Source: Verrucomicrobiales bacterium (lineage in GTDB: Bacteria; Verrucomicrobiota; Verrucomicrobiia; Limisphaerales; JAFMIX01). From it: 50,620 bases of DNA. The stretch covers positions 1 to 50,620 of the forward strand of contig JAFMIX010000002.1 in NCBI GenBank assembly GCA_017853785.1, written 5' to 3'. Position numbers and translations under genes: made by a program. Positions 21,779 through 28,534 of the stretch are shown here, one piece after another. Below the pieces are notes generated by a model. It was not told where the DNA came from and did no database searches. It was given only the letters and a program-made list of their open reading frames with translations. Numbering within the stretch: position 1 is the first letter of the stretch; each line of letters opens with the position of its first letter.

Positions 21779-22396
21779 ATGGTGCCTGAAGAATCCGAAT
21801 CTGATTACCCGCTCGACCGGCTCTGGAAAGAATACGGCAGCGCCTTCGATGATTTTGACGACCTCACGCTGGCGCGCTGGCTGGCGCAGACGCTGGGGCA
21901 GATCAAAGGGCAGGGATGGCGCTACTCGCATCCGCTGCTTGGCGCGTATCGGCTCGCGGCGCAGGCGGGTCACGCGCGGCAGGTGTGGCTCAAACGGTTG
22001 GTGAACACGCCCGCGCCGTATGTGGAGGCGGGTTGCTGTCGCGCTCCGGCGCTGCCGTTGGTCACGCGCGACTTGGCGGAGTCGGGGCTGATCTGCCTGC
22101 ATTGCAGCGAGACGCTGCTGCCGTTCGAGGAGATTCCCGAGGCGTTGCGCCCGGAACTGGCGGCATGGGTGGCGGCTTATGCGCCGGTGCATCAGGTGGC
22201 GCATTGGGACGACCGGCAGCGGAAGGGGGCACGGAATTACGACCAAGCATGCGAGTCCGCCGCGCAGGAGGCGGAGCGGTTGCTGGCGCAACTGGGCGGG
22301 CATCTCGCGCCCAAGCTGCTGGAATATTTTCCCGCCGTCGTCTGGGAGGATCAGGACGAATGTCTGGAAGTGAGGCCGGAGGATATTCCGTTGTGA
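21779..22396 (+). CDS. Hypothetical protein with CC...CxxC cysteine cluster
   Basis: ORF 21752 (TTG) or 21779 (ATG) to 22396. Codon usage resembles neighbouring genes. GCCRAP...LICLHCSETL. I recognise no family. Confidence 0.55.
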   Translation: MVPEESESDYPLDRLWKEYGSAFDDFDDLTLARWLAQTLGQIKGQGWRYSHPLLGAYRLAAQAGHARQVWLKRLVNTPAPYVEAGCCRAPALPLVTRDLAESGLICLHCSETLLPFEEIPEALRPELAAWVAAYAPVHQVAHWDDRQRKGARNYDQACESAAQEAERLLAQLGGHLAPKLLEYFPAVVWEDQDECLEVRPEDIPL

Positions 22397-22526
22397 ACCG
22401 TTCGCTCGCGATGGCTTATGATTTAATGGTGACCTTTAACTAAATCCATCGAGCTATTGACATTTTTTAAAGGTTCAATAGAAGTGTCTGCGTCCGAAGG
22501 GTTAGGTTGTATAAACGCATAAAAAT

Positions 22527-22925
22527 ATGGCAGCAAAATTTTGCGGGCTGACTTTCGTCGAAATAGGATTGTTGTCTTCAGGTCTGGTTTTTTTGTCCGG
22601 TTGCGCTAACACCGAATATGGTCATACCAGCCCCTACCATCCTGGCCCAGCTGCTGGGCCAGCAGTTGGTAATGCAGCGGGCGTAGTGGTCGGCAACGCC
22701 CTCGGGGTTGGTGTTGGGGTGGTGGAAGGAACGGCGGCGGGATTGGCCGCGCCGTTTGATCCGAGTTATCACATGGTTCGTCATTGGAAAAATGAAACCA
22801 CAGCGGATGGTCGTACCATTCAGGTGCCTTACGACGTACTGGTGGACAAAAATGGGCGTCCGGTGAATATGCCAGCTCCTACGGGAAATCCGGCTCTGCC
22901 CCCGGTCGTGGCCCCGGCCAAATGA
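22527..22925 (+). CDS. Glycine-zipper (SlyB/Pcp-like) lipoprotein
   Basis: Signal + lipobox LVFLSGC. Gly-zipper GPAVGNAAGVVVGNALGVGVGVVEGTAAGLAAP. Confidence 0.7.
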   Translation: MAAKFCGLTFVEIGLLSSGLVFLSGCANTEYGHTSPYHPGPAAGPAVGNAAGVVVGNALGVGVGVVEGTAAGLAAPFDPSYHMVRHWKNETTADGRTIQVPYDVLVDKNGRPVNMPAPTGNPALPPVVAPAK

Positions 22926-22970
22926 CTCCCTTGCCACTTTCTTTTTCCAACCCTCACCCGAACAACAATT

Positions 22971-24185
22971 ATGCGAAACTTGATTCATGCCTGTCTGCTG
23001 GCCGCCTTGACGGTGACGTTGCCAAACTGCCTTCACGCCCAAAACAATCCGATTGAAACGGCGGCGAACCTCAAGGATAGCACTACCCATGTGGTTGTGG
23101 AACGAAAAGTTATTGAGACCACTAAAACCTACCAGCAAGAAACGGCGCGTGATGCCCAGCGTAAAATCGCCATCATTGTGCAAAACCGTGGCGACGCTAG
23201 CCTTAATGACAAGGTTGCCGTGCTGGAAGACTTGGTAGGTAGTCGAGTGGCTGGCAACGGGCTTTCCGTTATTTCTCGCGATGATGTCACGCGGTCATTG
23301 AAGAATTATTCCGGTAACAACAATCCCAATGGTGAATTGAACGCCGTGGACCGGTCGTTGGAGGATGGTAGTTCCGCACTGCGACTCGCACAGAATCTTG
23401 GTGTGGATTATATTCTGGTGCCTTCCATCGTCAGTCTGGGCACGGAGAAGAAAAATTATACCGGCAACGGTATCAGCACGCTCAACATTGCGCACAAACT
23501 CCGCGTAACCTATAAAATCGTCGAGGCAGGCGTGGGCGGTGCGGTGCGCGGTGGGGCGTTCACCTCGGAAAAAAACATCCGGCAGACGTCTGGTATGCAA
23601 ACCGAAAGCAACGACGTTATCAATGAACTGCTGGATGACGCAGCCGAGCAACTGGCTGATGCCATTGTGCAAAACGCCAAGTCATTGCCGGCGGAAGTGG
23701 CAAAAGCCGCCATGGTCAGTTTCAAGGTGGCTTGCACCATGACTGACCCGCGCCAGCAGCCGATTTTGATGTCCGCCGTGGGCATCACGGCGGATCACAA
23801 ATTGGTGGTGACCAACCAGCCGATTGCTGTTCAAGCCATGGATGTGACGGTGGAACTCGATGGCGTGGCGATTGGGTCTGCCCCCGGGACATTTCAGGGT
23901 CGCCCGGGTTTGCATAAAATCCGGCTGGCACGGGAAGGCTTTGATGTCTGGGAACGCACCATCAACATTTATGAGGGCCAGAATCTTCGCGTGGCACTCC
24001 AGATGAGCGCTGCCGGTTATGCGCGCTGGGCGGATACGACCGCCTTTCTTGCTGAGCTGGACAGTAATCGCAAGCTGACTGATGCCGAGGTGAAGCGTAT
24101 CGAGGGCATCGCCGAATTTTTCAAGAACAGCCACTACCGTGTGGACACCAAAGAGAACGTTAAAATTTACAAGAGCATCTTTTAA
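22971..24185 (+). CDS. Exported CsgG/LpoB-fold module + PEGA-domain protein
   Basis: Signal peptide ...LPNCLHA-QN. N-terminal module KIAIIVQNRGDASLNDKVAVLEDLV...VISRDDVTRSL...LRLAQNLGVDYILVPSIVSLG...KLRVTYKIVEAGVGG. PEGA-like VTVELDGVAIGSAPGTFQGRPGLHKIRLAREGFDVWERTINIYEGQNLRV. Confidence 0.7.
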   Translation: MRNLIHACLLAALTVTLPNCLHAQNNPIETAANLKDSTTHVVVERKVIETTKTYQQETARDAQRKIAIIVQNRGDASLNDKVAVLEDLVGSRVAGNGLSVISRDDVTRSLKNYSGNNNPNGELNAVDRSLEDGSSALRLAQNLGVDYILVPSIVSLGTEKKNYTGNGISTLNIAHKLRVTYKIVEAGVGGAVRGGAFTSEKNIRQTSGMQTESNDVINELLDDAAEQLADAIVQNAKSLPAEVAKAAMVSFKVACTMTDPRQQPILMSAVGITADHKLVVTNQPIAVQAMDVTVELDGVAIGSAPGTFQGRPGLHKIRLAREGFDVWERTINIYEGQNLRVALQMSAAGYARWADTTAFLAELDSNRKLTDAEVKRIEGIAEFFKNSHYRVDTKENVKIYKSIF

Positions 24186-24203
24186 TTCAACCACTTAACC
24201 CGC

Positions 24204-25103
24204 ATGAAAAATATTTTTTTTAGATTTGGTCTGGCGGCTCTGATTGTGACGCTTTTGCCCGCCGTGCTGACAGCGCAGGAAAAATCCACGCTCGCGGTTT
24301 CCTCTATCAAGCCGACGGCATCTTTATCAGCCTCGGTGTCGGCCGACAAAAAATTGAAATTGAATCGCATCACTGAGTCGCTTGATAGCCAGTTGATTGA
24401 CCGTATCAATGCGACACGAAAATTCGACGTCGTAGGTCGCAGCGACCTTGGTGATGTTATCAAAGAGCAGGATTTGGGTGCTTCTGGCAACGTAGATGCT
24501 AAGACGGCCGCGAAAGCGGGAAAATTGACAGGCGCGAAATATCTGCTGGTTGCGACCGTGGATGATTTTCAAGACTACGTTGAAAAGGCGACATTTGAGG
24601 GAACCGGTCGGGCGGCGACCAAACGGGTGTTTCGCTTTTCCATCGTCGGAAAAATTTATGATTCTACCACCGGCAAGCTGCTGGAGTCGGCCAATTTCCA
24701 GACCGGCAACGACGCGTTCAAGCAAATCCAGCAGGAACGCAATTACACCGTGAAGGATGGGGAGTTGAGTGATGAAATGATGGTCGCGGTTTCGCGGTCA
24801 ATGGCTGAAAAAATCGCCAATCGAGTGGCCGACGTTATTTTTCCAGCCAAGGTTTTGATCAAGCGCGATACGCAGGTAACCATCAACCGTGGCGAAGGCG
24901 CCGGGGTAGCGGTGGGCGACCTGTTCAATATTTTTGCGCTGGGTGACGAAATGATTGACCCTGACACCAAGGAATCGTTAGGCCGAGAAGAAGTGAAGGT
25001 TGGCAAGGTGAAGATTTCAGAAGTGAATCCTAAATTTTCCAAGGCAGAAGCTTTGGAAGACACCGGCATCACAAGCGGTGCCGTTTTACGCAAAGTTCAG
25101 TGA
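24204..25103 (+). CDS. Exported CsgG-family module + C-terminal beta-domain (FlgT_C-like)
   Basis: Signal ...LLPAVLTA-QE. FDVVGRSDLGDVIKEQDLGASGNVD...AGKLTGAKYLLVATVDDF and FRFSIVGKIYDSTTGKLLES parallel E. coli CsgG (PLERQGLQNLLNERKI..., IAVNLRVVNVSTGEILSS). C-terminus VLIKRDTQVTINRGEGAGVAVGDLFNIFALG...VGKVKISEV. Confidence 0.72.
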   Translation: MKNIFFRFGLAALIVTLLPAVLTAQEKSTLAVSSIKPTASLSASVSADKKLKLNRITESLDSQLIDRINATRKFDVVGRSDLGDVIKEQDLGASGNVDAKTAAKAGKLTGAKYLLVATVDDFQDYVEKATFEGTGRAATKRVFRFSIVGKIYDSTTGKLLESANFQTGNDAFKQIQQERNYTVKDGELSDEMMVAVSRSMAEKIANRVADVIFPAKVLIKRDTQVTINRGEGAGVAVGDLFNIFALGDEMIDPDTKESLGREEVKVGKVKISEVNPKFSKAEALEDTGITSGAVLRKVQ

Positions 25104-25107
25104 ACGT

Positions 25108-26568
25108 ATGGAGTTAACCGCAAACTTGATTATGGCTAACGAAAAAAACAAAAATAAATGGATCAAATGCGGAACTGCCATCCGGTTATTACTTTTGGTG
25201 GGTAGTGTTGGTTTGTTGGCAACGGGCTGTCAAACTTATCAGCAGCAAAACAAAGTTGTCTCCAATTGGAGGCAGGGAAATTTGAATGTCGCTGCCGCCG
25301 AGGCTAAAAAACTGGCGGACAACAATGCCCAGAACAAGGATTCCATCATATGGCGATTGGAGCAGGGTGCGGTTTTGAGAGCTGCTGGTCAATACAACGA
25401 AAGCAATCAAGCATTTGACCAGGCGCAGGAAAAAATTGACGACTATGCTCAGAAAGCCAAGGTTCGGGTCGGTCAGGAAGCCGGGGCGTTACTTTCCAAT
25501 CAGGCCAATCTGGATTACGAAGGTCGTTCTTACGATGGCATCATGCTCAACACCTACAAGGCATTGAATTATCTAGCGTTGGGCGAGTCCGACAAAGCCC
25601 GTCCGGAAATCATTCGCGCTTACCAACGCCAACAGGATGCAGTCGAAACCAACAAGAAACGCATTGAGAAAACACAAGAGGCTGCCGCGCAAAGCAAGGA
25701 CAAGGCGGCAATTGAAAAAGCGCAAAATGACCCCAAATTACAGGCGCAATTTGCCGGGGCTACCACCAATTTGGGCGGGTTGAATACCTATGCCGATTAC
25801 GTCAACCCGTTCACTACATATCTGGATGGCTTGTATTTCATGGCCAATGCCGCCGATGCTTCGGATTTGGAGCGCGCCCGTAAATCCTTTGAACGGGTCA
25901 CCGCCTTTACGCCCAATAATGACTACATCAAACAAGATTTTGCCACCGTCAACGATTTGATCCAAGGCAAGCCGTTGCCCTCGTTGACCTATGTGATTTT
26001 TGAAACCGGTTGTGCGCCCGAACGCGGGCAAATCCGGGTTGATATTCCCATCATCGTCCTGACGGTGTCCTACGTCGGCGCGGCGTTTCCAACCTTGAAA
26101 TTGCAGGATAATTTCATTCCTAGTTTGACGGTGGTTGCCGAAGGCACAAACGTCACCACGGCATCGGTTGCCAGCATAGATGGAGTTGTAGCATTAGACT
26201 TTAAGAATGAACAGCCCGTGGTTATCACCAAAACCATTGCTTCGACGGTGATAAAAGCAGTGGCTGCCTATGCCGCAAACGAAGCTGCCCAGCAGGCGGG
26301 TGGCGACATCGCTGGCTGGGTGTCAAAAATTGGCACGGCTGCCTACCAGATGGCTGTGAACATTGCTGACGAACGTACTTGGACGACGTTGCCAAAAGAA
26401 TTTCAGGTGGCGCGTATCCCCACCCCCTCAGATCGAAAATTAAATTTAGCCACTCCCAACGGCATGCAAACATCACTAACCATTGGCGACGGCATTATAA
26501 ACGTAGTTTATGTCAAATCCATTACTGCTGGAACGCCGCTGCTGATGTCACAATTCAAACTAAAATGA
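25108..26568 (+). CDS. Large TPR-like lipoprotein, uncharacterised
   Basis: Start at ATG 25108 or 25132. KNKNKWIKCGTAIRLLLLVGSVGLLATGC lipobox-like signal. Helical repeat region (WRLEQGAVLRAAGQYNESNQAFDQAQEKI, MLNTYKALNYLALGESDKARPEIIRAY). The family assignment rests on context only. Confidence 0.65.
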   Translation: MELTANLIMANEKNKNKWIKCGTAIRLLLLVGSVGLLATGCQTYQQQNKVVSNWRQGNLNVAAAEAKKLADNNAQNKDSIIWRLEQGAVLRAAGQYNESNQAFDQAQEKIDDYAQKAKVRVGQEAGALLSNQANLDYEGRSYDGIMLNTYKALNYLALGESDKARPEIIRAYQRQQDAVETNKKRIEKTQEAAAQSKDKAAIEKAQNDPKLQAQFAGATTNLGGLNTYADYVNPFTTYLDGLYFMANAADASDLERARKSFERVTAFTPNNDYIKQDFATVNDLIQGKPLPSLTYVIFETGCAPERGQIRVDIPIIVLTVSYVGAAFPTLKLQDNFIPSLTVVAEGTNVTTASVASIDGVVALDFKNEQPVVITKTIASTVIKAVAAYAANEAAQQAGGDIAGWVSKIGTAAYQMAVNIADERTWTTLPKEFQVARIPTPSDRKLNLATPNGMQTSLTIGDGIINVVYVKSITAGTPLLMSQFKLK

Positions 26569-26984
26569 AAACATCCAAAGTTATCCTTCCTTTTTTTGCC
26601 GTCGGCATTCTGATGCTGGTTGGTTGCACTACAGTTAACACCGTCGAAAACGCTCAAAAATCCGGTCAGCGCGCGATGGTTTCTGACCAGCGCGTGATTA
26701 CTGATGCCAGTCTCAACCGCAAGGTGGCCATTGTCGGCGTTAATGCTGCCATGACTCCGGGCGGACTCCTCAAGGCGCAGGTGGAACTGGAAAACCGCAC
26801 CCGCTCGCTTCAGCGGTTTCTGTATCGCTTCGAGTGGTTTGACGCCAACGGCATGCAGGTCAACAATATTATTTCCGCATCCGTTCCCGAGCAGATCGAA
26901 GGCAAGGAAAGCAAGTTCATCTACAGCGTCGCTCCAAATCCCAACTGCCGTGATTTCCGTGTAAAATTCATCGAAGCCAACTAA
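26565..26984 (+). CDS. YcfL-like (DUF1425) lipoprotein
   Basis: ATGA overlap with the preceding gene. Signal MKTSKVILPFFAVGILMLVGC. LKAQVELENRTRSLQRFLYRFEWFDANGMQV parallels E. coli YcfL ...VTVHYRFYWYDARGLEM. Confidence 0.75.
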   Translation: MKTSKVILPFFAVGILMLVGCTTVNTVENAQKSGQRAMVSDQRVITDASLNRKVAIVGVNAAMTPGGLLKAQVELENRTRSLQRFLYRFEWFDANGMQVNNIISASVPEQIEGKESKFIYSVAPNPNCRDFRVKFIEAN

Positions 26985-27001
26985 ACATCTAAAAGATAAC
27001 C

Positions 27002-27574
27002 ATGAAAAACAAAATTATACTTCTTATCATTGCGGCTGCGATTCCAGCGGCTTTTACCGGCTGTGCCACCAATGCACATTACGTTCAGACCGGCGACAAG
27101 GAACAGATAATTAGTTTGGGCCAGATCAATATTCAGGATTACGCTAACGCCGCCAATGCCGCAGTCAAAGAACTGCTTGAATCCGGAGCGATTGACAAGG
27201 TTGCCAACCCGCCGGCTTTGCTGGAGATCAGCCGTATTGTGAACAATACAGGGCAGCAGGTAGATACCGATTTGCTGACCAAAAAAATCAGCATTGCGCT
27301 GTTGCAAAGCGGCAAGGCGCTCACCAAGACCGTTGACAAGAAGGCGACAGGTTACCAGCAGGAAGCTGAATTCATGAACGACCAGAAGACCACCCGCATG
27401 CCGGATTTCACCCTTTCTGGCAAAATTATCGAGACGGTTGACCGGGCGGGAAACACCCGGCGCACGACTTATAGTTTTCAACTCTCACTCAACGACACCA
27501 AGGCTGGTGTTCAGGTGTGGGAAGGGGAAAAAGAAATTGCCAAGCAGGGGACTCGATCTTCCGTAGGGTTTTGA
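27002..27574 (+). CDS. LpoB-like lipoprotein (penicillin-binding-protein activator LpoB family)
   Basis: Signal IPAAFTGC. LLEISRIVNNTGQQVDTDLLTKKISIALLQSGK parallels E. coli LpoB LLVDSVNNRTNGSLNAAEATETLRNALANNGK. C-terminus YSFQLSLNDTKAGVQVWEGEKEIAKQG parallels LQMQLMLVQTGEIIWSGKGAVSQQ. Confidence 0.8.
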   Translation: MKNKIILLIIAAAIPAAFTGCATNAHYVQTGDKEQIISLGQINIQDYANAANAAVKELLESGAIDKVANPPALLEISRIVNNTGQQVDTDLLTKKISIALLQSGKALTKTVDKKATGYQQEAEFMNDQKTTRMPDFTLSGKIIETVDRAGNTRRTTYSFQLSLNDTKAGVQVWEGEKEIAKQGTRSSVGF

Positions 27575-27643: not shown

Positions 27644-27713
27644 AAACTTTAAAATGTTCGATAATGAACAATTTAGGTAAAGATTGAACTGAAGCTGTTC
27701 TGAACATTTAATA

Positions 27714-27747
27714 GGCGGGGCTGGCGCGAGCCGGTCCCGCTTTTTTG
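27714..27747 (+). terminator. Intrinsic terminator closing the lipoprotein operon (or a short downstream transcript)
   Basis: GGCGGGGCUGGCgcgaGCCGGUCCCGC (with G-U pairs) followed by TTTTTTG, about 140 nt after the lpoB-like stop. Confidence 0.65.
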
Positions 27748-27790
27748 TTCAGTGATTGTTCCGCGCGGCGCGAAGAGGTATAACGCGGTG

Positions 27791-28534
27791 ATGAAGTTTC
27801 TGCTCAAACTGATTTTGCGGCTGCTGGCTGTGCTGCTAGTGCTGGCCATCGTCGCGTTCCTTTCGTGGGACTGGATTGTGAAAAAGGTCGCCGAAAAGCG
27901 GATCCAGTCCGTCACCGGCATGGAGACGCACATCGGGAAATTTTTCATCGGCGTGACGACGCCGGTGATTCGCATCAAGGATTTCAAGCTCTACAACCCG
28001 GCGGAATTCGGCGGTGCGCCGTTGGCGGATCTGCCGGAGGTGCATCTGGAATACGACAAGGCGGCGCTGCGGGAAGGTAAAGTGCACCTCAAGTTGCTCC
28101 GCGTGAATCTGGCCGAGTGGAATCTAGTGCGCAGCTTGGACGGCCGCACCAATGTGAATGTGCTGCGCGAACGGCTGCAGGCGCAATTCGCGGCGGCCGC
28201 CAAGGCGGCGGCGGAAGCCGGCAAGAACGGCAAGAATGTGCCGCTCCTGCAGTTCGACCGGATCGAGATGCTGAACCTCACACTTGGGCGGATGCGGTAT
28301 CTCGACCTAGCCCATCCCGAGGCGACGCGGGAGGTGGATCTGGGCATCCGCAACCAGGCGTTTCCGAATGTGAAATCACAGGAGGACCTTTACGGGCTGG
28401 CGGTCGTTTTGCTGCTGAAATGCGGGCCGGAACTGATGGAACAATTTTCCGGCCAGATGCAGGGCCTGGCGGCGGATGGCGCGGACAAACTGAAACAAGC
28501 CAAGGACAAGGCCGGCGCGTTGATCAAGCAATAG
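27791..28534 (+). CDS. Membrane-anchored hypothetical protein (AsmA-N-terminal-like)
   Basis: ATG 27791 gives MKFLLKLILRLLAVLLVLAIVAFLSWDWIVKKVAEKRIQSVTG..., an N-terminal anchor followed by a beta-rich region. The family call is tentative. Confidence 0.5.
   Translation: MKFLLKLILRLLAVLLVLAIVAFLSWDWIVKKVAEKRIQSVTGMETHIGKFFIGVTTPVIRIKDFKLYNPAEFGGAPLADLPEVHLEYDKAALREGKVHLKLLRVNLAEWNLVRSLDGRTNVNVLRERLQAQFAAAAKAAAEAGKNGKNVPLLQFDRIEMLNLTLGRMRYLDLAHPEATREVDLGIRNQAFPNVKSQEDLYGLAVVLLLKCGPELMEQFSGQMQGLAADGADKLKQAKDKAGALIKQ

Follow-up and report, generated by a model that had tools for sequence, protein, structure and literature searches.

What task would a bacterium entrust to an operon whose six genes encode nothing but exported proteins? 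This question is raised by a stretch of 50,620 nucleotides from a Verrucomicrobiales bacterium (assembly GCA_017853785.1, contig JAFMIX010000002.1, positions 1 to 50,620 of the forward strand), which is called the window here. Six genes, G1 to G6, are encoded on its + strand between positions 22527 and 27574, and a preliminary description had regarded them as a candidate envelope complex. Our analysis assigns G4, G5 and G6 to the COG3014, YcfL and LpoB families of lipoproteins, G2 and G3 to a pair of FlgT-like paralogs, and G1 to a glycine-zipper lipoprotein. The linkage of COG3014, LpoB-like and G3-type genes crosses phyla and was found in Verrucomicrobiota, Alpha- and Gammaproteobacteria. 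The lipoprotein trio is already known, if poorly understood; the six-gene form and the cross-phylum linkage of FlgT-like, COG3014 and LpoB genes are undescribed.

The open reading frames (ORFs) are packed tightly, as the preliminary description had stated, and the ORF coordinates give intergenic gaps from G1 to G6 of 45, 18, 4 or 28, -4 (ATGA overlap) and 17 nt. Each product carries a signal peptide and is predicted to be exported, and the four lipoboxes noted earlier hold as well, the cysteine being conserved in the relatives of G1, G4, G5 and G6. An intrinsic terminator closes the block on the + strand (27713..27748). It consists of a 13-bp stem (27713-27742), in which 9 pairs are G-C, followed by a T6 tail, and its fold energy of -34 kcal/mol (z = -7.26; none of 200 shuffles was as stable) bears out the closing hairpin described before. 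In a scan of 7.5 kb, terminator-like sites occurred at chance level overall (9 found versus 10.3 expected), and this hairpin was the sole outstanding one. The AT-rich intergenic region upstream of G1 (22397..22526, + strand) is the presumed location of the promoter; a site scan listed no sigma-70 consensus site there. Scanning the block and this upstream region against Rfam gave no leader, no riboswitch and no match of any kind, and antisense ORFs within the block had no family matches. Judged from its sequence, the block is a single tight operon that is self-contained.

G4 (25132..26568, + strand, alternative starts 25108 and 25078) encodes a lipoprotein of ~478 aa with the lipobox ATGC. The start at 25132 is favored by the N-termini of homologs and puts the lipobox cysteine at residue 33. 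Relatives that are 70% identical are named 'COG3014 family protein' by NCBI, and 3892 representatives of this family were found at E <= 1e-3 in a 50%-identity cluster library. The expectation of a ~480-aa lipoprotein with tetratricopeptide repeats (TPR) thus stood as to the lipoprotein, whereas the TPR part was recovered weakly. The Pfam TPR match lies below the curated cut-off, structural matches by Foldseek are weak and generic TPR only (among them NlpI and PilF), and neither single-sequence nor profile searches found a relative among solved structures. In an AlphaFold2 model (predicted local distance difference test, pLDDT, 64.5) the N-terminal half forms confident TPR-like helices and the conserved C-terminal half has a pLDDT below 50. 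The public automated call of G4 (P0121) has 428 aa and starts past the signal peptide and lipobox, so that standard annotation would miss the lipoprotein nature of G4. Some G4 homologs reach 570-690 aa (P0152, P0169 and P0240; loci L030, L034 and L035) through insertions or a fused PF13646 (HEAT-like) region.

The two following genes were correctly recognized before as ycfL- and lpoB-like. G5 (26565..26984, + strand), whose start overlaps the G4 stop, encodes a 139-aa YcfL/DUF1425 lipoprotein (LVGC, C21 invariant). It matches DUF1425 (PF07233) with 70.7 bits against a cut-off of 28.3 (E = 1e-19), and its family profile finds the PDB entries 3o0l (3.8e-9) and 4gio (1.7e-4), the latter being Cj0090 of Campylobacter jejuni (PMC7857515). 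G6 (27002..27574, + strand) encodes a divergent LpoB-family lipoprotein of 190 aa (FTGC, C21 invariant in 17 sequences), which covers the Pfam LpoB profile (PF13036) from position 1 to 147 of 147 with 81.5 bits against a cut-off of 22.3 (E = 7.4e-23). The LpoB domain of G6 begins at residue 46, ~25 residues beyond the lipobox cysteine, and G6 residue 72 aligns with residue 101 of Escherichia coli LpoB, an offset of ~29. In E. coli LpoB a disordered linker of ~55 residues lets the domain reach PBP1B. The domain of Aeromonas LpoB also starts at residue 43, hence a long linker is not universal in LpoB. Since hhalign of G6 against G2 and G3, with shallow alignments, found no similarity beyond the signal peptides, a fold class shared by LpoB and CsgG rests on Pfam cross-hits only. 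Single-sequence structure searches with G2, G4 and G6 gave nothing useful, and profile structure searches with G1, G4 and G6 returned chance-level matches to TarM, single TPRs and OmpA-family proteins only.

G2 and G3 precede the trio. G2 (22971..24185, + strand) encodes a 404-aa protein with a CsgG/LptE/FlgT_M-like alpha/beta module (residues ~65-238), a PEGA beta-sandwich (293-344) and a helical tail, and this architecture agrees with the preliminary description. The PEGA domain (PF08308) scores 36.2 bits against a cut-off of 20.8 (E = 5.9e-9) and is predicted as a beta-sandwich in the AlphaFold2 model (pLDDT 60). The N-terminal module of the model has the CsgG/LptE/PelC/FlgT fold according to Foldseek (E from 1.6e-7 to 1e-4), with matches to GNA1162 (1.6e-7), FlgT (8z5n, the Vibrio LPHT ring, and the crystal structure 3w1e), the PelC dodecamer, LptE, HpaA and CsgG. 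G3 (24204..25103, + strand) encodes a 299-aa protein in which a CsgG module (PF03783, residues 23-206) was found with 55.5 bits against a cut-off of 20.8 (E = 6.2e-15). The FlgT_C-like domain also ascribed to G3 is weaker: FlgT_C (23.1 bits, cut-off 27), FlgT_M (24.5 bits, cut-off 31.2) and LpoB remain below the Pfam cut-offs, and Pfam shows no FlgT_N domain. A profile search against the PDB nevertheless matched the C-terminal beta domain of G3 to the FlgT_C-like domain of TsaP (6ve2_O, 6.5e-8; 3jc8, 6.3e-5). Because hhalign shows the alpha/beta modules of G2 and G3 to be homologous (probability 90.8%, E = 1.2e-6) and the C-terminal domain of G3 matches TsaP, we regard G2 and G3 as paralogous FlgT-like two-domain proteins with an alpha/beta module followed by a beta-sandwich. 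With these results PEGA, CsgG, DUF1425 and LpoB were all recovered by hidden Markov models (HMMs). Many G2 homologs (L022-L040) carry a long Ser/Ala/Thr-rich insert after residue ~110.

Resemblance to known ring and channel proteins is limited to architecture and fold. Like FlgT of the Vibrio H-ring, G2 and G3 place an alpha/beta module before a beta-sandwich, and the G2 model aligns with FlgT over ~310-340 columns; G3 shares its C-terminal domain with TsaP, which forms a ring round the type IV pilus secretin. The proteins of the module differ from both in having neither FlgT_N nor LysM. No flagellar or pilus genes were seen near the module in the window flanks examined, nor flagellar genes in related loci. 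With CsgG, PelC, LptE and GNA1162 the likeness is one of fold class, for G3 by the Pfam CsgG match and for G2 by its model. In CsgG, two amphipathic beta-hairpins form a 36-strand membrane barrel. In an HMM alignment with E. coli CsgG, the TM1 hairpin region of G3 is shorter by 4 residues and contains the charged residues E, K and R; the TM2 region is unaligned and, on direct reading of the sequence, polar. This bears out the earlier impression that amphipathic hairpins are missing from the CsgG-like modules. Lipid anchoring does not extend to G2 and G3. Both have signals of the signal-peptidase-I type (AxA followed by Q) and no conserved cysteine in 42-43 relatives, C20 of G2 not being conserved, and both are thus predicted to be soluble periplasmic proteins rather than lipoproteins. 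Because the lipid anchor is missing and the hairpin regions are short, charged or polar, a CsgG-type membrane barrel or curli-type channel can, on present evidence from the sequence, be ruled out. The module also differs from the CsgG-, PelC- and LptE-containing systems in lacking csgE/F/A/B, pelB and lptD, and neither csgE/csgF nor an amyloid subunit gene was found in the module or within 10 kb in related loci.

G1 (22527..22925, + strand) encodes a 132-aa lipoprotein (LSGC) in which the lipobox is followed by a glycine zipper and a conserved C-terminal domain without fold assignment. In 15 sequences the lipobox cysteine C26 is invariant, as are the glycines G44, G48, G52, G56, G60, G64, G68 and G72, whose i+4 spacing makes up a GxxxG zipper. 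Of the proposed SlyB/Pcp-like glycine-zipper lipoprotein, the zipper motif and the lipobox thus stand, but no family model of SlyB/Pcp or another zipper protein was matched. Pfam gave no match at E <= 1, NCBIfam gave weak glycine-zipper matches only (0.019 to 0.13), and the G1 profile found no relative among solved structures and no significant SlyB match. Further glycine-zipper genes were seen at other loci: in E. coli K-12, ycfL-lpoB is followed at a distance of ~4.3 kb by ycfJ (PF05433; L046:7600-8001), and a second such gene directly follows the module in L001 (14797-15534). Glycine-zipper genes near ycfL-lpoB or the module are possibly a recurrent loose association.

The six genes are strongly linked within Verrucomicrobiota. 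A scan anchored on a G2 alignment, with one genome per species, yielded 43 loci, of which 42 had enough DNA. All belong to Verrucomicrobiota (subdivision 3 / Limisphaerales), save a few bins with implausible labels. The latter, modules of 63-82% identity filed under Hydrogenedentes, Bifidobacteriaceae, Methylomirabilota and Acidoferrum bins (L008, L014, L030, L032 and L040), are probably mis-binned verrucomicrobial contigs. In every informative locus (42/42), G2-G3-G4-G5-G6 are collinear, at identities down to 43-47%. G1 is located upstream in most loci and follows G6 in the most divergent lineage (L042:16101-16499, L044:14507-14905 and L045:4776-5168). A metagenome scan anchored on a cross-phylum G4 alignment reached close verrucomicrobial relatives only (56-77% identity) and provided 34 loci with room on both sides. 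Here G5 and G6 were present in all 34, G1 in 32, G3 in 29 and G2 in 28. Six loci held reduced forms (L075, L120, L121, L122, L124 and L097), five with G1-G4-G5-G6 and one with G1-G3-G4-G5-G6. G2 always stands beside G3-G6 (42/42 loci with enough DNA), and the converse is false. Since the reduced forms keep G1-G4-G5-G6 and G2 never occurs alone, the trio plus G1 appears to be the core in this lineage and G2 and G3 dependent additions.

The idea of a composite confined to Verrucomicrobiota had to be abandoned, because its core of COG3014, LpoB-like and G3-type genes also occurs in Proteobacteria. Searching PLSDB with G4 (tblastn) gave two records, Azospirillum sp. TSH100 plasmid p1 and Aeromonas caviae. 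On the Azospirillum plasmid the order is COG3014 (441 aa) - YcfL - LpoB - DUF6844 - a hypothetical protein of 402 aa. The COG3014 protein is a full-length homolog of G4 (hhalign probability 100%, E = 1.9e-40, 411 columns), and the 402-aa protein is a G3 homolog across both domains (probability 97.3%, E = 2e-11). This copy is located among glycosyltransferase and methyltransferase genes, beside a giant protein with immunoglobulin-like (Ig-like) domains. A search with the Azospirillum G3-like protein led to eight relatives whose gene contexts were inspected. On six contigs, Endozoicomonadaceae and Roseococcus among them, homologs of G4 (1e-65 to 1e-98), LpoB (1e-32 to 1e-42) and G3 (1e-16 to 1e-23) form one cluster, on some of them with DUF6844 or YcfL. 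The trio was absent beside the G3-like genes of the two further relatives and of the betaproteobacteria Cupriavidus and Caballeronia, where the neighbors in the latter two are hypothetical genes. Altogether, homologs of G4 and G6 adjoin the G3-like gene in 7 of 11 contexts outside Verrucomicrobiota. As in the window, the genes share one strand and the G3-like proteins have signal-peptidase-I-type signals. The proteobacterial clusters differ in lacking G1 and G2, in often carrying DUF6844 instead, and in placing the G3 type after LpoB and not before COG3014. DUF6844 was rejected as a counterpart of G2 by descent, being unrelated to both G2 and G3 by hhalign. At L134:6621-10138 and L138:6617-8730, G3-like genes stand as tandem pairs with neither COG3014 nor LpoB; the pair in L134 adjoins DUF6844 and a Peptidase_C14 (caspase-like) gene, a different and equally undescribed context.

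In Aeromonas caviae the order is COG3014 - YcfL - LpoB - thiK-like kinase, the G4 HMM matching with 2e-36. The record (L049, NZ_AP026896.1; 4.94 Mb, 18 annotated features) is listed as a plasmid in PLSDB and is evidently a chromosome. As the E. coli order is hinT-ycfL-lpoB-thiK-nagZ, the Aeromonas cluster is the lpoB locus of enterobacteria preceded by a retained COG3014 gene. Checking the E. coli locus also established the ycfL-lpoB adjacency that had been likened to G5-G6. The two arrangements agree in the YcfL-LpoB order and in both proteins being lipoproteins; they differ in that E. coli has no COG3014 and no G1-G3 types there, and G6 is distant with an apparently shorter linker. Families of the operon are therefore linked well beyond the ycfL-lpoB pair, in the 42 G2-anchored loci, the 34 G4-anchored loci and Proteobacteria.

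The proposed resemblance of G4-G6 to cj0089-cj0091 of C. jejuni was also borne out. Both are runs of three lipoprotein genes in the same order, with 453/122/207 aa there and ~478/139/190 aa here, the first of TPR type, the second DUF1425, as the G5 profile match to Cj0090 indicates, and the third of the LpoB family. The link from G4 to Cj0089 and its Helicobacter pylori homolog HP0018 rests on the COG3014 name, size, gene order, TPR content, the literature and the proteobacterial homologs. What sets the verrucomicrobial operon apart is the co-inheritance of G1, G2 and G3. In agreement with the preliminary description, the literature search found no paper on the six-gene composite; the same holds for COG3014 as such, for DUF6844 and for the proteobacterial cluster, which has been annotated only.

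What, then, might the operon do? The reading that we favor, and to which we give an even chance, is an outer-membrane-tethered periplasmic assembly that scaffolds or regulates peptidoglycan enzymes and thereby coordinates wall and outer membrane. The core would be the lipoprotein trio of COG3014 (TPR-like), YcfL (Ig-like) and an LpoB-like protein. In the verrucomicrobial lineage it would be joined by two soluble FlgT-like paralogs, each with a CsgG/TolB-N-type module and a beta-sandwich, and by the glycine-zipper lipoprotein. All six products would form one assembly beneath the outer membrane, held there by lipid tethers. By scaffolding or regulating enzymes that remodel or synthesize peptidoglycan, it may keep wall and outer membrane in step. 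Physical complex formation, the outer-membrane location and the peptidoglycan link are all steps that we infer. Three of the six products belong to fold classes whose studied members act on the periplasmic side of the outer membrane.

The peptidoglycan link is suggested by the kinship of G6 with LpoB, by the Aeromonas cluster that connects to the lpoB locus, by what HP0018 binds and what its loss causes, and by the precedent of CpoB and TolB. In H. pylori, HP1457, the ortholog of Cj0091, has been called an LpoB homolog, and HP0018 is the Cj0089 homolog (PMC11394524). Loss of HP0018 causes hypervesiculation with vesicle chains and less helical cells, and HP0018 co-precipitates AmiA and MltD (PMC11394524). 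E. coli LpoB activates PBP1B, a process modulated by CpoB, a TPR protein, and by the Tol system, including TolB with its TolB-N fold (PMC4458516). In Klebsiella pneumoniae, transposon sequencing under the beta-lactam cefiderocol placed ycfL (-2.54) alongside mrcB (-2.43) and lpoB (-3.68), a polar effect of ycfL insertions on lpoB being possible (PMC13436387).

Several observations weigh against this interpretation. G6 reaches 95.9 bits on the NCBI equivalog TIGR02722, below its cut-off of 110.55, and barely aligns to E. coli LpoB by BLASTP (21% identity, E = 0.033); its family profile found no LpoB structure in the PDB. Cj0091 has been reported as an adhesin of the outer membrane, its mutant showing less adhesion to INT 407 cells and poorer colonization of chicks, and Cj0089 fractionates with the inner membrane (PMC3100323). 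The AlphaFold2 models of G2 and G4 are moderate, with no confident fold for the C-terminal half of G4, and export machines such as PelC and CsgG make use of the fold shared by G2 and G3.

The distance of G6 from E. coli LpoB bears equally on the view that G6 is a strict LpoB ortholog, which binds and activates a PBP1B-type synthase while the other five genes are unrelated neighbors or minor helpers. Pfam recovers the LpoB domain over its full length, the ycfL-lpoB order is that of E. coli with Aeromonas bridging both arrangements, and proteobacterial LpoB proteins within the larger module pass the equivalog cut-off (145 bits in Azospirillum and 157.6 in Endozoicomonadaceae; E. coli reaches 218 and Aeromonas 218.6). 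G6 itself falls short of that cut-off, however, and the stretch before its aligned core is ~29 residues shorter than in E. coli. Moreover, strict co-inheritance of five or six genes speaks against mere neighbors, and we consider this explanation unlikely.

Slightly less probable still is a secretion or anchoring device, in which CsgG-, PelC- or FlgT-like rings of G2 and G3, together with G4, would guide a polymer, fiber or appendage across the outer membrane or onto it. The matches of the G2 model to the PelC dodecamer, CsgG, GNA1162 and FlgT in the LPHT ring, and those of G3 to Pfam CsgG and to the ring-forming secretin partner TsaP, are what such a device would lead one to expect. TPR domains are typical of exopolysaccharide export proteins (PelB, AlgK and BcsC), which counts in the same direction, as does the Azospirillum copy with its glycosyltransferase and methyltransferase genes and the giant Ig-like protein next to it. 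But the module includes no beta-barrel porin, substrate gene or inner-membrane synthase, and its flanks differ between lineages. G2 and G3 have neither lipid anchors nor amphipathic membrane hairpins, and the constant partners, YcfL and the LpoB-like protein, have no secretion link. Taken together, this makes a secretion role quite improbable.

Another low-probability alternative is a protective or stress module, in which a SlyB- or Pcp-like G1 and the other lipoproteins would stabilize outer-membrane domains without a direct link to peptidoglycan enzymes. The perfectly conserved zipper of G1, its nearly constant linkage to the trio, the second glycine-zipper gene after the module in L001 and the vesiculation upon HP0018 loss (PMC11394524) fit this proposal; the lack of a significant match of G1 to SlyB or any solved glycine-zipper protein, and of a G1 homolog in the proteobacterial versions, does not. 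Surface-exposed adhesins, as reported for Cj0091 on the basis of the reduced adhesion and colonization of its mutant (PMC3100323), are very improbable here, because the carriers are free-living soil, peat and lake bacteria, two products are predicted to be soluble in the periplasm, and an envelope defect would equally explain the adhesion phenotype.

The copy in the window also raises the question of its origin. The block was noted as AT-richer than its flanks, and the measured G+C content (GC) of 51.2% is 8.4 and 10.4 points lower than on the left (59.6%) and right (61.6%). GC at third codon positions (GC3) is 50-62% in the block genes versus 77-83% in four flanking genes. The borders of the low-GC tract are sharp, near 22400 and 27750: GC drops from 0.68 (22050-22349) to 0.447 (22350-22649) and is back to >=0.57 from 27750. 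The tract coincides exactly with the operon, its upstream region at the left border and the terminator near the right one. As a property of the module, however, AT-richness did not hold. In 32 relatives the GC difference between module and flanks has a mean of -0.001 (16 lower, 16 higher), so it is special to this genome. Among the relatives a common neighborhood was found in 75 of 210 locus pairs, while the window flanks match none beyond two-component paralogs. Deviant GC3, sharp borders and unique location, taken together, point to lateral acquisition or relocation from a relative with lower GC as the probable origin of this copy. Around the insertion no tRNA, meaningful flanking repeats, integrase or other mobility genes were seen.

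In the window the module is neighbored by an AsmA-like gene, a two-component system, a UDP-glucose dehydrogenase gene, two NUDIX genes, IspF and a TadA-like deaminase gene. The AsmA-like gene and the two-component system do follow the block here, as stated before, but they were rejected as parts of the unit: the AsmA-like gene, response regulator, kinase and upstream ORF adjoin the module in none of ~120 related loci. The AsmA-like ORF (27752-28534) has only 260 aa and matches the AsmA and DUF748 models over no more than their first ~190 positions. It is thus a short N-terminal form and not a full-length protein, and it probably starts with the ATG at 27791, immediately past the terminator.

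LpoB is a textbook regulator of wall synthesis that is understood only in enterobacteria, whereas its family and the neighbors YcfL and COG3014 are widespread and without assigned function. The linkage described here yields a concrete set of partners to test, including those of the tractable Azospirillum. Tentatively, and as a possibility that we hold to be rather unlikely, the operon may represent one form of an ancient, phylum-spanning and so far undescribed periplasmic machine, in which an LpoB-type lipoprotein works in a larger, outer-membrane-anchored assembly with a COG3014 TPR lipoprotein and ring-capable FlgT-like proteins, and of which the enterobacterial LpoB-PBP1B pair would be a stripped-down remnant. 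If so, YcfL and COG3014 would gain a function. The finding suggests that many Gram-negative bacteria coordinate wall and outer membrane through a larger assembly than is now known.

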